This document shows, piece after piece, positions 646-60,576 of a stretch of 64,000 nt of DNA; within the stretch, counting starts at the first letter, position 1; each line of letters begins with the position of its first letter. The notes under the pieces were generated by a model that searched no databases, was not told the DNA's origin, and saw only the letters and a program-made list of their open reading frames with translations. Both the position numbers and the translations under genes were made by a program. The DNA lies in contig CAIWHP010000218.1 in the NCBI GenBank assembly GCA_903912445.1, positions 36,329-100,328 on the forward strand. Direction: 5' to 3'. Source of the DNA: an uncultured Lentisphaerota bacterium. GTDB lineage: Bacteria > Verrucomicrobiota > Kiritimatiellia > CAIQIC01.

Positions 646-695
646 TTTTCCAAGCCTTGGAAAGAACGGCGTTTCACGTTCCAACCCTTGGAAAC
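646..695. repeat. two phased copies of the palindromic motif TTTCCAAG-N-CTTGGAAA, upstream of the GH2 gene
   Basis: ttttccaagccttggaaag (646-664) and ttccaacccttggaa (679-693); centre-to-centre spacing ~31 bp; same motif family recurs at 5 other loci in the window. Confidence 0.7.
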
Positions 696-13885: not shown

Positions 13886-14046
13886 TCACCACCCCGCGCG
13901 CTGCACGGCGGCAGTTCCTCTTTATGTCGAACGTGGCCCATGCCTCCCAACGCTTGGAATTGCTGACCAGGTTCGCGGTCCCCGCTAGCACAAGGGCTGC
14001 AACGCCCACGCCTGTCATCAGCTCGCCCTAGCCGAAGCCGTCGCTC

Positions 14047-28184: not shown

Positions 28185-28188
28185 CGTT

Positions 28189-28269
28189 CTTCCAAGGGTT
28201 GGAACTTTATTTCGCGTTTTTTCCAAGGCTTGGAAAAGCCCACAGAGCACCTTTCCAAGCCCTGGAAAG
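28189..28269. repeat. three phased copies of the palindromic motif TTTCCAAG-N-CTTGGAAA
   Basis: ttccaagggttggaac (28189-28204), ttttccaaggcttggaaaa (28218-28236), ctttccaagccctggaaag (28251-28269); ~31-33 bp phasing; fills the ridA-metY intergenic gap. Confidence 0.7.
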
Positions 28270-29606: not shown

Positions 29607-30107
29607 TCAAATCACGTAGTGCAACTCGGCCGCCTGCGCGTCGTACTGCTCCACAATGTTGCGCAGGGTCAGCGACTGCAATTTTTGGCGGAGCGCCGCC
29701 TCGACCTCGCGCCAGGCATAGCCCGCCGCGCCATTGGTGAGTTCATCGACCGGCACCAGCTGGCACGGGCCTTCGAGCGCCTCGACGATGGCGAGCAGCG
29801 TGATCGCCTCCGGCTGGCGCGCCAGCCGGTAACCGCCATGCGCGCCGCGCTCCGCGCGGATCAGCTCCGCCGAGGTCAGCAGCCGCGCCACGTGCCAGAG
29901 ATATTTCTCCGAGATGAGCAGCAGCCGCGAGAGCGCGCCCAGCGTGAAGGGCTCCGCGCCCGGATGCCGCGCAAGCGCGATCATGAAGCGCAGCCCGTAG
30001 CGCCCCTTGGTCGTCACACCCAGGCCGCTGCCAAATTTTCCGAGCGGGGCCGCCGCCTTGGGCACCGCGCCCCGCCCCACCCGCTTCACCTTGGTTTGCT
30101 TTTGCAT
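29607..30107 (-). CDS. Rrf2 family transcriptional regulator (IscR/CymR-like)
   Basis: ATG at 30107 (aa 6 of ORF ..30122); wHTH GRYGLRFMIALARHPGAEPFTLGALSRLLLISEKYLWHVARLL; sits between sulfur-metabolism genes. Confidence 0.8.
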   Translation of the reverse strand: MQKQTKVKRVGRGAVPKAAAPLGKFGSGLGVTTKGRYGLRFMIALARHPGAEPFTLGALSRLLLISEKYLWHVARLLTSAELIRAERGAHGGYRLARQPEAITLLAIVEALEGPCQLVPVDELTNGAAGYAWREVEAALRQKLQSLTLRNIVEQYDAQAAELHYVI

Positions 30108-31720: not shown

Positions 31721-33241
31721 GTGTCGGCCATCGTTCTAGCAACTTTTTCGGCGCGCTACCAGCACGCGGCGTTCGGCCTGCGCTATTTGCAGGCGAACCT
31801 CGGCGAGCTGCAGGCGGATTCCGCCCTCCTGGAATTCGACCTGCAAACCGCACCCGCGCTGGCCGCCGCAAAAATCCTCGCGCCCGCCCCGCGCCTCGTC
31901 GGGCTCGGCGCCTATATCTGGAACATTCCCCAGACCGCCGCGTTGCTCGCGGCCCTGCGCCGCGCCGCGCCGCAGCTCACGCTCGTCCTCGGTGGCCCGG
32001 AAATCAGCTACGCAACCGAAACGCATCCGCTGACGCCGCTGGCCGACTACGTCATCTGCGGCGAGGCCGACCTCACGTTCGCCGCGCTCTGCCGCGCCGT
32101 GCTCGCCGGCGCGCCGCCGCGGGAGAAAATCGTCCACGCGCCGCCGCCCGCGCCCGCGCAGCTCGCCCTGCCCTACGCGCTCTATACCGATCACGACCTC
32201 GCGACGCGCTTCACCTACCTCGAGGCCTCGCGCGGCTGCCCGTTCGGCTGCGAGTACTGCGTCTCGGCCATCGAGCGCGGCGTGCGCCGCTTCGAGCTGG
32301 CAGCCCTTTTGCCGGAGTTCGAGCGTTTGCTCGCCCGCGGCATGCGGCGCATCAAGTTCGTGGACCGCACGTTCAACCTCGACGCCGACTTCGGCCGAGC
32401 CGTGCTGGAATTTTTCTATTCCTATGCTGCAGGTAGGGCGCCGCCTCCGGCGGAGCCGCTCGCCGTCAACGGCTCGGCGGGACGCCTCGCCCCACCGTCA
32501 GAGCTGCAGGTGCATCTGGAAATCACACCGTCGTGCCTGACGCCACCGTGGCGCGAGCTGCTGCGGCGCGCGCCGCCCGGCCTGCTGCGGCTGGAGGTCG
32601 GCGTGCAGACCTTTTCCGAGGAAATCAACGCGCGCATCGGCCGGCAACAAACCGCCGCCGCGGCCGAGGACGCGCTCCGCTTCCTGCGCCAGGAGACCCA
32701 CGCGCTGATCCACGCCGACCTGATCGCCGGGCTGCCGGGCCAGACGCTGGAAAGTTTCGCCGCCGACTTCGACCGCATGATCCATCTCCAACCCCACGAG
32801 CTGCAGGTCGGCATCCTCAAGCGCCTGCGCGGCACGGCCATTGCGCGGCACGACGCCGAGTGGGATGTCCGCTGGAATCCCGAGCCGCCGTACGAGCTCG
32901 TCGCCAACCAGTTGCTCGACGCCGCGACCGTGGAAAAGCTCAAGCGCTTCTCGCGCTTCTGGGAGCTGCTCGGCAACCGCGGCCGCTTCGAAAACACCTT
33001 GCCGCTGCTCTGGAGCGGGCCGGGCGACTCGCCGTTTTCCAGGGTTTGGAAGCTCTGCGACCACCTTTTTCCAAGGTTTGGAAAAACCCACAGCATCCCC
33101 CTGTTCGAGCTGGCCTACGCGCTCCTCGAACACCTGGTCGCCGGCTGCGGCCTCGAACGGGCGCGCGTCGCCGCCGCGCTGCGTACCGATTTGGCGCGCA
33201 GCGGCGCGCTGCATCTGCCAAACTGGCTCGACACACCATGA
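31721..33241 (+). CDS. B12-binding domain radical SAM protein (DUF4080 type)
   Basis: GTG at 31721 (aa 96 of ORF 31436); N-terminal B12-binding-like Rossmann, rSAM motif LEASRGCPFGCEYC, C-terminal DUF4080-like region; carries an in-frame copy pair of the TTTCCAAG palindrome at 33035-33086. Confidence 0.7.
   Translation: MSAIVLATFSARYQHAAFGLRYLQANLGELQADSALLEFDLQTAPALAAAKILAPAPRLVGLGAYIWNIPQTAALLAALRRAAPQLTLVLGGPEISYATETHPLTPLADYVICGEADLTFAALCRAVLAGAPPREKIVHAPPPAPAQLALPYALYTDHDLATRFTYLEASRGCPFGCEYCVSAIERGVRRFELAALLPEFERLLARGMRRIKFVDRTFNLDADFGRAVLEFFYSYAAGRAPPPAEPLAVNGSAGRLAPPSELQVHLEITPSCLTPPWRELLRRAPPGLLRLEVGVQTFSEEINARIGRQQTAAAAEDALRFLRQETHALIHADLIAGLPGQTLESFAADFDRMIHLQPHELQVGILKRLRGTAIARHDAEWDVRWNPEPPYELVANQLLDAATVEKLKRFSRFWELLGNRGRFENTLPLLWSGPGDSPFSRVWKLCDHLFPRFGKTHSIPLFELAYALLEHLVAGCGLERARVAAALRTDLARSGALHLPNWLDTP
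33035..33086. repeat. two phased copies of palindromic motif TTTCCAAG-N-CTTGGAAA located in-frame inside the B12-rSAM CDS
   Basis: ttttccagggtttggaag (33035-33052) and tttttccaaggtttggaaaaa (33066-33086); translates in-frame as ...SPFSRVWKLCDHLFPRFGKTH.... Confidence 0.65.
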
Positions 33242-39484: not shown

Positions 39485-39606
39485 GGCCCGAGCTTAGCTG
39501 CCGCCCCGCCAGATTCCAAGGATGGGAAATGCGCCCGCGGCCACACGCGCGCCGCGGTTGCGCAGGCTGCGCGGCGGGCTTACGTTTTATCGACCGGAGG
39601 TGGCCT

Positions 39607-41249: not shown

Positions 41250-41888
41250 TCAGCTTGGATTTTCAATGCCGAGCAATGCGCGGATGGGCCGGAAGCTGCG
41301 CCGGTGCTGCGGCGTCGGGCCGAGCTCGCGCAGCGCGCGCTGGTGGAGCGCGGTGCCATAACCTTTGTGCGCGGCGAAGCCGTAGCCGGGAAACTGGCGG
41401 TCGAGCTCCAGCAGCTGGTGATCGCGCGTGACCTTGGCGATGATGCTGGCCGCGGCGATGGAGAGGCTCAGCGAGTCGCCGCGCACGATCGCGCGATGCG
41501 GGCAGGGCAGGCCCTTCACGGGCAGGCCATCCACGAGGGCAAATTCCGGCGGCGGCTGGAGCGCGGCGAGCGCGCGCGCCATCGCCAGGTGCGTTGCGCG
41601 CAGGATGTTCAGCGCGTCGATCTCGGCCACGTCGGCCTGGCCGACCGCCCAGGCGATCTCCGGGCGGCTTTGGAGGCGGGCAAAGAAAAACTAACGCCGC
41701 GCGGGCGTGAGTTTTTTCGAATCGGTCAGGCCGCGGAAGAACCCGTCGGCCTCGGCCTCGGCGAAGGCCGGCGCAATCATCACGGCGCCGGCCACCACCG
41801 CCCCGGCCCACGGCCCGCGCCCGGCCTCGTCTACTCCGGCCAGGCGCTGGATGCCCGCGCGCCAGCAATCGCGCTCGTGAGCGAGCAC
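41250..41888 (-). pseudogene. rnhB: ribonuclease HII gene interrupted by an in-frame TAG codon at 41691-41693
   Basis: N-terminal ORF 41691..41888 (…[21 protein letters not shown]…[10 protein letters not shown]) and C-terminal ORF 41250..41630 (…EIDALNILRATHLAMARAL…) are in the same frame, separated by one TAG where RNase HII homologues have Glu (GAG); otherwise intact. Confidence 0.6.
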
Positions 41889-43250: not shown

Positions 43251-43559
43251 TCAGGCCTGTGCGGCCGGTGCGACGGGCTCGGCCGCAGCCGGCGCCGTCT
43301 TGGCCGCCGCGCGGGCAGCCGTCTTGCGCAGCTTGCGCATAAAGCTGTTCACGGTATCCGAGAGCTGCGCGCCTTTGCCGACCCAGTATTCCACCCGGTC
43401 AACCTTCAGCTCGAAGTTGGTGCCCTTCTTTTTCGGGTCGTACCAGCCCAAAGCTTCCAAGAAGCGTCCCGCATTGGGACGCCGCGAATCGGTCGCCACA
43501 ACGCGAAAGAACGGCTTTTTGTTTCCGCCCATCCGCCGCAACCTGACTATGACTGCCAT
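43251..43559 (-). CDS. rpsP: 30S ribosomal protein S16
   Basis: MAVIVRLRRMGGNKKPFFRVVATDSRRPNAGRFLEALGWYDP...; canonical S16 with Ala-rich tail. Confidence 0.95.
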   Translation of the reverse strand: MAVIVRLRRMGGNKKPFFRVVATDSRRPNAGRFLEALGWYDPKKKGTNFELKVDRVEYWVGKGAQLSDTVNSFMRKLRKTAARAAAKTAPAAAEPVAPAAQA

Positions 43560-43727: not shown

Positions 43728-43781
43728 CTTTTCCAGACCTTGGAAACCGGAACCCGCGGCTTTTCCAAGGCTGGGAAAACC
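43728..43781. repeat. two phased copies of palindromic motif TTTCCAAG-N-CTTGGAAA upstream of the rpsP operon
   Basis: cttttccagaccttggaaacc (43728-43748) and cttttccaaggctgggaaaacc (43760-43781); ~32 bp phasing. Confidence 0.65.
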
Positions 43782-51381: not shown

Positions 51382-51592
51382 GGGACGGCTTCTAACAGAG
51401 CCGCGCCCGCTTGCCAAGCCTAGGAACGCCGAGCAGAAACAAACGAAAAACACGACGCAAGCGTGAAGCCTGCGCCAAGCATGGTTCTGTTTTCCGCAGG
51501 ACTTGACGGCTGCAGCCAGCGTCCTCCTCATATAATTAATGGATTGCAGCAGGAACGGTGTTACGTTCAGATCGAAGCAGAAGGGACTCAGC

Positions 51593-55047: not shown

Positions 55048-55126
55048 TTTTCCAAGCCTTGGAAACCGGGCAGCCGGTTTTTCCAAGGCTTGGAAAAAAA
55101 CCGTGTGGAATTTCCAAGGCTTGGAA
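55048..55126. repeat. three phased copies of palindromic motif TTTCCAAG-N-CTTGGAAA
   Basis: ttttccaagccttggaaa (55048-55065), tttttccaaggcttggaaaaa (55078-55098), tttccaaggcttggaa (55111-55126); 30-32 bp phasing; fills the floA-downstream intergenic gap. Confidence 0.75.
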
Positions 55127-55128
55127 CC

Positions 55129-60346: not shown

Positions 60347-60354
60347 GGAAATTG

Positions 60355-60576
60355 ACGATTGCAGATTGCCGATTGAAGATTTGTGGAAGGGCACACTTCC
60401 TTAGAATCAGAAAGGCAAGCTGCGCCCTTTCCCAGGCCTTGGGAAAAACAGCACTTTCGTTTGATAAGCTTTGGAACGAAGTGTGTGTGGACCTTTTTGA
60501 CACCGCCCATGGGTCATTCTTAGTCCGGTTCGCTACCGCCAATCGGCAATCGGCAATCTTCAATCGGAAATTCCGC
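60355..60576. mobile_element. second inverted-repeat-flanked insertion (same CCGATTG-rich terminal repeats) with ~150 bp non-coding cargo, between batA and batB
   Basis: Left gacgattgcagattgccgattgaagatttgtgg (60355-60387); right ccgccaatcggcaatcggcaatcttcaatcggaaattccgc (60536-60576), reverse-complement related; cargo contains one tttcccaggccttgggaaaaa palindrome (60428-60448) and no ORF. Confidence 0.5.

Follow-up and report, generated by a model that had tools for sequence, protein, structure and literature searches.

The gap between a metY-like gene and ridA, in a 64-kb stretch of DNA from an uncultured Lentisphaerota bacterium (the whole stretch is referred to here as the window), is filled by three copies of a short palindrome that returns, singly or in phased arrays, at other places along the same DNA. 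This locus raises the question of what such a repeat is: an earlier note on this DNA had read it as the array of a dimeric DNA-binding protein or, alternatively, as an extragenic element resembling the repetitive extragenic palindromes and bacterial interspersed mosaic elements (REP/BIME) of other bacteria. The reading that we favour, and to which we give an even chance, is that the palindrome would be the double-stranded DNA site of a conserved dimeric or oligomeric DNA-binding protein, occupied cooperatively on one face of the helix in a global or architectural role, and kept by selection acting at the DNA level.

A phased 19-bp palindrome

The conserved unit, as seen in a logo of 440 copies, is a palindrome of 19 bp, TTTTCCAAG-S-CTTGGAAAA (9-1-9); these copies come from about 100 related loci which were all chosen for carrying a perfect dimer, so that array size and copy quality are biased in this sample. 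The inverted repeat had first been described as 7-1-7 or often 8-1-8, and whereas the palindrome stands, its conserved length is greater. Its information is distributed with dyad symmetry and is highest at positions ±4-5, where CC/GG is at least 99% invariant, the other positions being TT/AA at ±6-7 (~98%), AA/TT at ±2-3 (~96%) and ±1 (~86%). At the centre, G (52% of the copies) is slightly commoner than C (45%), neither being tied to spacing or to the direction of transcription, and beyond ±9 the information is about zero in spacers and outer flanks alike. A symmetric profile with its peak at CC/GG fits the pattern that would be expected of two half-sites lying one helical turn apart.

Within the window TTCCAAGNCTTGGAA is found five times in exact form, against 0.00 expected from 100 dinucleotide shuffles, and 15 times when up to two mismatches are allowed, against 0.09 expected, so that the motif is indeed far above chance. 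It also holds its place as the dominant intergenic repeat of this DNA. Half-sites amount to 13-14, where composition would give about 2 by our own estimate, and the 13 palindrome copies account for essentially all of them, which indicates that the unit is the full dyad. The sequence CCWWGG outside the palindromes is neither depleted nor otherwise unusual in the window.

Neighbouring palindromes of the window are always 31 or 32 bp apart, and the same is observed outside it: among the 440 copies we counted 106 neighbour distances of 31 bp and 130 of 32 bp (236 in total), with a few at 29-30 or 62-63 bp and almost none of any other value below 200 bp. The mean of about 31.5 bp corresponds to three turns of B-DNA, and dimers bound at such sites would thus share one face of the DNA. 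Distances of 31 and 32 bp do not alternate in a way that would keep the phase, and one genome favours 32 bp (43 versus 8). The spacers between the 19-bp units measure 12-13 bp and are unique, their sole signal being a peak of about 75% GC at the midpoint. Neighbouring spacers share 5.5 matches of 12-13, compared with 5.4 for random pairs, which shows that the arrays are not recent tandem duplications or composite repeats, and tandem duplication as their origin was rejected. Self-complementarity of the spacers was also considered and is marginal (3.4 versus 3.0 matches), and additional half-sites within them were discarded, as TTCC or GGAA reach merely about 5% per position. Arrays hold from one to five units in this dimer-selected sample, whose size distribution is biased by that selection.

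The six loci reported earlier for the window are all in place; together with three single degenerate copies, they are as follows.

646..695, array of two palindromes; 15-mers start at 648 and 679, centres at 655 and 686, 31 bp apart
13943..13961, single copy with two mismatches, TCCCAACGCTTGGAA; 15-mer starts at 13945; intergenic gap
28188..28269, array of three palindromes; 15-mers start at 28190, 28221 and 28253, centres at 28197, 28228 and 28260, 31 and 32 bp apart
33035..33085, pair of palindromes inside a gene; 15-mers start at 33037 and 33069, centres at 33044 and 33076, 32 bp apart
39512..39530, single copy with two mismatches, TTCCAAGGATGGGAA; 15-mer starts at 39514; divergent intergenic gap
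43729..43779, array of two palindromes; 15-mers start at 43731 and 43763, centres at 43738 and 43770, 32 bp apart
51410..51428, single copy with two mismatches, TGCCAAGCCTAGGAA; 15-mer starts at 51412; divergent intergenic gap
55048..55128, array of three perfect palindromes; 15-mers start at 55050, 55081 and 55112, centres at 55057, 55088 and 55119, 31 and 31 bp apart
60428..60478, decaying array between batA-like and batB-like VWA genes; centres at 60437 and 60469

The array at 28188..28269 reads TTCCAAGGGTTGGAA, 16 nt, TTCCAAGGCTTGGAA, 17 nt and TTCCAAGCCCTGGAA, and fills the 90-bp gap that extends from the stop codon of the metY-like gene (28275, minus strand) to the start of ridA (28184, minus strand), the two genes being called from Pfam Cys_Met_Meta_PP and Ribonuc_L-PSP. 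The metY-like gene is itself directly preceded by a gene for an Rrf2-family regulator (29607-30107, minus strand), the apparent operon order being Rrf2, metY, the palindrome array, ridA and a CBS-domain protein. The array at 646..695 is placed in the gap between an unknown open reading frame (ORF) ending at 575 and a gene of glycoside hydrolase family 2 (GH2 by Pfam, ATG at 745), while that at 55048..55128 fills the gap from the floA stop codon (55042) to the next start codon (55129/55131). The array at 43729..43779 had been assigned to the region upstream of the rpsP operon, and it does precede rpsP (43251-43532, minus strand) by 196 bp, but it adjoins the stop codon of an apiosidase-like gene (43785, minus strand), 5 bp past it. 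In the decaying array, the copy at 60430 (centre 60437) is the symmetric variant TCCCAGGCCTTGGGA, and its decayed partner, which has four mismatches, has its centre at 60469, exactly 32 bp further downstream. The single copies starting at 13945, 39514 and 51412 all fall within the approximately 11% of the window that is intergenic, and are probably relics.

Two other features of the window were noted alongside. The batA-batB gap is flanked by inverted arms of 45 nt (60350-60394 and 60528-60572) which are 78% complementary and are built of GATTGNN repeats of about 7 bp, distinct from the TTCCAAG palindromes that they enclose; the orthologue of this gap at the related locus L059 carries analogous yet different repeats of GATTT type. 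Elsewhere, homology to RNase HII (rnhB, 41250-41888, minus strand) is split over two reading frames, with positions 1-46 of the Pfam profile at 41691-41888 and positions 72-197 at 41250-41630, which suggests a frameshift, a pseudogene or an assembly error in the metagenome-assembled genome (MAG).

Since transcribed palindromes necessarily fold as RNA, the symmetry described above has to be weighed at the RNA level as well, where the hairpins might stabilise or process operon mRNA, as REP hairpins of E. coli do, or might bind an RNA-binding protein. Many arrays do lie between co-oriented genes of likely operons, right after stop codons (metY-ridA, floA and its next gene, batA-batB), and the RNA fold of the array region has an energy of −48.9 kcal/mol (z = −5.0), but a comparably strong fold is expected from any palindrome array. 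Selection on a hairpin would be looked for in compensatory changes, and here mirrored double changes of the two arms occur at the rate of independence and are rarely complementary, with no enrichment of G-T wobble among single changes; in fact, the stem letters, CC/GG above all, are more invariant than pairing needs. It is also not obvious what a strict three-turn spacing would mean for RNA, and arrays are found in divergent gaps too; there is neither a U-tract nor any polarity relative to transcription, the profile being symmetric with respect to gene direction. A search of the whole window against Rfam at the gathering threshold gave 0 matches. We therefore hold an RNA-level element to be unlikely. 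An intrinsic terminator was likewise rejected for the 28.2-kb locus, where a terminator scan found 0 sites and no U-tail is present; the base of the stem is AT-rich and is followed by an A-run, the T-run being part of the stem.

Gene context, copies inside genes and spread across the clade

We have analysed the gene context of 178 classifiable arrays with a gene caller of our own that is based on codon usage; it assigns 88.5% of the window to coding sequence, and at least one of its "intragenic" cases (L022 4233) is a start-codon miscall. Arrays occupy 44% of convergent gaps (28 arrays in 64 gaps), 30% of divergent gaps (18 in 60) and 22% of tandem gaps (102 in 462), and 30 of the 178 lie inside called genes. 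About 83% of the arrays are thus intergenic although about 88% of the DNA is coding, an intergenic enrichment of about 36-fold. In tandem gaps the median distance of an array is 29.5 bp from the stop codon upstream and 91.5 bp from the start downstream, and about one third of these arrays are within 10 bp of that stop codon.

Copies inside real genes, about 15% in all, are informative on how the motif arises. The pair at 33035..33085, which had been placed inside a coding sequence, lies in a real gene for a B12-binding radical SAM/DUF4080 protein (31721-33241, plus strand), where it reads FSRVWK....FPRFGK, and the stretch SPFSRVWKLCDHLFPRFGKTH can be aligned gap-free with distant homologues, in which the sequence is SPFAAFWRLSDWLFAQTGRQH. 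We have examined five intragenic cases, of which three were aligned to homologues and two judged by eye: ThiD-like and HemN-like proteins are also gap-free across the pair when compared with PDB homologues, and CinA-like and MurC-like proteins give a similar picture by eye, without homologue alignment. The recurrent peptides FSKxWK, FQxLEK and FPxLGK, which had been attributed to spurious ORFs, do arise from the motif in some such ORF calls, but several belong to these genuine proteins (radical SAM/DUF4080, ThiD, HemN-like, CinA and MurC).

The codons used within the pairs are also unusual. The series CTT TTT CCA AGG TTT GGA AAA is identical in three species and consists of rare A/T-ending codons in genes with a GC content at third codon positions of 0.69-0.86, while a radical SAM orthologue of 57% identity uses ordinary GC-rich codons and lacks the motif. 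In the tree of this gene the motif is carried by orthologues of at least 70% identity and is missing at about 57%. Between species, conservation of synonymous third positions is 83-100% within palindromes versus 62-73% elsewhere in the same genes; when pooled, 44 of 48 match inside, compared with about 67% outside. Taken together, the gap-free alignments and the conserved rare codons indicate that the constraint is on the DNA sequence itself and on correctly spaced pairs, and that these copies are not insertions.

The orthologue of the radical SAM gene in DP16D_bin.41 carries a third palindrome within the gene (L113 4357-4371), reading FQGLEK at a place where the window encodes GCGLER; it is 74 bp past the conserved pair and outside the 31-32 bp phase, and looks like a site in the making. 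The same gene of the window contains a GC-rich in-frame insertion of about 22-27 amino acids (32428-32503), which is also present in some close orthologues. It reads EGRAxPPAEP...GSAGRLAPP in P0002, P0011 and P0016 and ...CGRRRRSQTAATEE in P0003, P0004 and P0012, possibly another reading frame of similar DNA; it is missing from P0005, P0006, P0008, P0009, P0013, P0015 and all distant homologues, and no further copies were found in the window or in the retrieved loci.

The distribution of the motif was determined in 185,579 species, one genome being scanned for each, by looking for pairs of perfect copies with a gap that was free to vary from 5 to 35 bp. The matches listed include more than 100 tiles of 8 kb, and in every match listed except two from Prevotellaceae the gap is 16 or 17 bp, so that the 31-32 bp spacing emerges also where the gap was left free. 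The motif-bearing assemblies number at least nine, all of them Kiritimatiellales-like MAGs with record names of Lentisphaerae, Verrucomicrobia/Verrucomicrobiota, Kiritimatiellae, Kiritimatiellales or "uncultured bacterium"; the GC content of the motif loci ranges from 0.58 to 0.74 across them, and the window itself is absent from the assemblies matched. With about one array in every 7-10 kb, a whole genome would by extrapolation hold several hundred loci.

Some occurrences were set apart. The two Prevotellaceae matches (L056 255-345 and L013 3495-3560) share the 15-mer core TTCCAAGSCTTGGAA within ordinary tandem repeats of 21-22 bp that have conserved spacers, and look unrelated to the arrays of the Planctomycetes-Verrucomicrobia-Chlamydiae (PVC) genomes, the core being apparently common to both by coincidence. 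A dialect of the motif in the sister genome L114 was considered and rejected: its one TTCCATCGGATGGAA is within coding sequence, where it reads YSIGWN and has no phased partner, and for this reason we treated it as a coding coincidence. Carriage by phages was also rejected, as viral contigs hold single sites only, in a number that we estimate to be about that of chance, and no phased dimers.

Comparison of orthologous sites shows how the arrays change. Synteny with L059 covers 53.4-61.9 kb of the window, where the DNA is about 83% identical, and at approximately 80-87% protein identity arrays are kept at orthologous sites with perfect palindromes and unalignable spacers. Copy number differs at these sites by whole 32-bp units: after floA there are three copies in the window and four, with different spacers, in L059; the decayed array of the batA-batB gap corresponds to three to four good copies in L059; and another orthologous site has one copy versus four. 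At about 50-60% protein identity the positions of the arrays differ.

Mobile, drive and regulon explanations

The alternative raised at the outset, a REP/BIME-like mobile element, would consist of hairpins spread in single-stranded form by a transposase of the REP-associated tyrosine transposase (RAYT) type, related to the Y1 enzymes of IS200/IS605, and accumulating between genes. Such an element would account for a short, highly repeated palindrome that lies near stop codons and preferentially in convergent gaps, is enriched about 36-fold in intergenic DNA, and forms clusters of one to five in which orthologous sites differ by whole units. It does not account for the five intragenic pairs, which entail no change of length in the three that were aligned and the two judged by eye, nor for the fact that nothing is conserved past 19 bp and that neighbouring spacers are unrelated, a result which speaks against duplications and composite REPINs. 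Also, the palindrome is perfectly symmetric and devoid of an asymmetric REP-like head, its arms do not covary, it is identical over at least nine species with GC contents from 0.58 to 0.74, and its arrays hold orthologous sites at about 80-87% protein identity. The REP/BIME alternative is thus disfavoured and we consider it improbable.

A DNA uptake sequence or another molecular drive, by which the competence machinery or a copying bias would favour DNA that carries the motif, is improbable to our judgement as well, although several observations are in line with it. Very many copies are perfect and the motif is conserved throughout the clade; copies inside genes arise by substitution at positions compatible with the protein, one species having acquired a third such copy in a gene that already carries a pair; copies near 3' ends and in convergent gaps recall pairs of the DNA uptake sequences (DUS) of Neisseria; and phased dimers are lacking from the viral contigs. 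On the other hand, the uptake sequences known so far are 9-12-mers which lack symmetry and act singly, and uptake bias alone does not predict a dimer-type palindrome paired at exactly 31-32 bp even within genes. Moreover, the present motif is about 36-fold denser between genes, whereas the uptake signal sequences (USS) of Pasteurellaceae lie for about two thirds in genes.

That the arrays would be operators of a specific transcription factor controlling a regulon is very improbable and already largely refuted: an operator would fit the phased palindrome and the position of some arrays upstream of genes (GH2, the rpsP operon), but the 57 genes with an array within 200 bp upstream match 88 Pfam families, none having more than two members, which indicates that there is no regulon, and arrays occupy 44% of the convergent gaps in the sampled loci, where no promoter is expected, stand nearer to the upstream stop codon than to the downstream start in tandem gaps, and would number several hundred loci per genome by extrapolation. 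Two further classes were rejected: a miniature inverted-repeat transposable element would have terminal inverted repeats, a target-site duplication and a conserved interior, whereas only the 19-bp palindrome is conserved here, flanks and spacers having about 0 bits; and arrays of clustered regularly interspaced short palindromic repeats (CRISPR) are limited to one or a few loci and combine repeats of at least 23 bp with spacers of about 26-72 bp, as compared here with 19 bp, 12-13 bp and one to five units recurring about every 7-10 kb.

Proposed cooperative protein binding, and known systems compared

The reading to which we return is that of arrays bound by a protein. At sites three turns (31-32 bp) apart, two to five dimers would be aligned along the same face of the helix and could bind cooperatively, or else a single higher-order oligomer would bend or wrap the DNA. 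The features described, taken together, are what cooperative same-face binding by a dimer of helix-turn-helix type, or by an oligomer of such dimers, would produce. Indeed, the earlier proposal of a dimeric-protein array is backed by the symmetry, the absence of covariation and of polarity, the phasing, the unique spacers and the synonymous conservation, the protein itself being what we infer from them. The density of about one array per 7-10 kb, the placement at gene 3' ends and the unrelated functions of the neighbouring genes suggest a global or architectural role rather than the control of a regulon, and the sites might serve as nucleoid-associated anchors, as topological or transcriptional boundaries, or as sites of recruitment. 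The fact that the motif is written into real genes by codon changes further favours a chromosome-wide protein-binding site over a jumping repeat. More tentatively, and with rather less than an even chance, the arrays could represent a clade-wide punctuation of the chromosome, in which an oligomeric protein on several hundred phased arrays, mainly at gene ends, would set nucleoid anchors or topological or transcriptional boundaries, under a pressure that would rewrite codons even in essential genes and hold three-turn pairs within coding sequence.

Several points weigh against protein-binding arrays. No cognate protein was found, and among small DNA-binding genes adjoining arrays we have seen a single one, of the ArsR family, which is also the sole helix-turn-helix gene nearby. 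In the divergent gap concerned (L102 1460-2026), a four-copy array lies 126 bp upstream of this gene (Pfam HTH_5, E = 3e-14), which we regard as a weak lead to a candidate for the cognate protein. Perfect palindromes make up 280 of 466 copies, which is more uniform than is typical of binding sites and could be the mark of a drive process, be it uptake bias or some other copying mechanism. The bias to 3' ends and convergent gaps, as well as the changes of copy number by whole units, are also typical of REP-like elements and would be compatible with a mobile origin for the copies between genes. To these are added the obligatory folding of transcribed palindromes, the dependence of gene context on our own gene caller, and the choice of the related loci for a perfect dimer.

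The long dyad, the three-turn phasing, the unique spacers and the creation of copies in place make it possible to separate a selected DNA site from a mobile insertion by sequence alone. Through the arrays it should be possible to trace a new global protein that binds DNA or organises the nucleoid in a poorly studied PVC/Kiritimatiellota lineage, and they offer a clean natural case of constraint at the DNA level overriding codon usage. At a practical level, the motif may be used as a lineage marker for binning, and it generates recurrent spurious peptides in ORF calls.

Palindromes repeated throughout a genome (REP, HIP1) and uptake sequences are classic puzzles, and genome-wide selected palindromes or arrays of protein sites are known as a kind; in the literature searched we have found no paper with this motif and nothing relevant on palindromes of Kiritimatiellae. 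REP/BIME elements are known from Enterobacteria and Pseudomonas, where REPINs are mobilised by RAYT transposases, and the BIMEs of E. coli are themselves protein-binding sites for gyrase, IHF and Pol I. Like them, the present repeat is a short palindrome in hundreds of copies, mainly extragenic, clustered and biased to gene 3' ends and operon gaps. Unlike them, it comprises the symmetric 19-mer only, with unique spacers, a fixed three-turn spacing, copies in genes without insertion and no covariation of the arms, so that insertional spread and a conserved element structure are not observed.

The highly iterated palindrome of cyanobacteria, HIP1 (GCGATCGC), is an 8-bp motif tied to DNA methyltransferases that occurs about once per gene and mostly within genes (PMC5861425, PMC4390886). 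Both are palindromes over-represented across a clade under selection at the DNA level, coding regions included, and selection at synonymous sites in genes is indeed found here; the present motif differs in being 19 bp long, about 36-fold enriched in intergenic DNA and arranged in arrays phased at 31-32 bp, and is not an 8-bp methyltransferase site residing mainly in genes. With DUS and USS it shares many near-perfect copies, a clade at the family level, substitution at tolerant positions within genes and frequent placement at 3' ends, being over-represented in genes as well as in intergenic DNA and conserved in its clade, but those sequences are non-palindromic, act singly and do not form fixed three-turn arrays.

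Sites of DNA-binding dimers were compared as well. The parS sites, the Noc-binding sites (NBS, ATTTCCCGGGAAAT), the matS sites of MatP and the SlmA-binding sites (SBS) are chromosomal sites of ParB-family and related organisers. They are palindromes of 13-16 bp distributed over the genome, often tolerated in genes and bound by chromosome-organising dimers, and NBS and parS also contain TTCC...GGAA; they differ in being single sites, tens per genome, with a half-site gap of 2-4 bp versus 7 bp here and no phased arrays. Arrays of Lrp/AsnC type are represented by E. coli Lrp at pap, ilvIH and gltBDF, with Lrp sites about 30-33 bp apart, and the sopC centromere of the F plasmid has 12 units of 43 bp, each with a 7-bp inverted repeat. 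Whereas these are single loci or many degenerate sites, near-perfect arrays with an unrelated half-site occur here at what extrapolates to several hundred loci; in common with them, the arrays described here present dyad-symmetric dimer sites at integral helical turns, an arrangement in which one face of the DNA can be bound cooperatively or wrapped.

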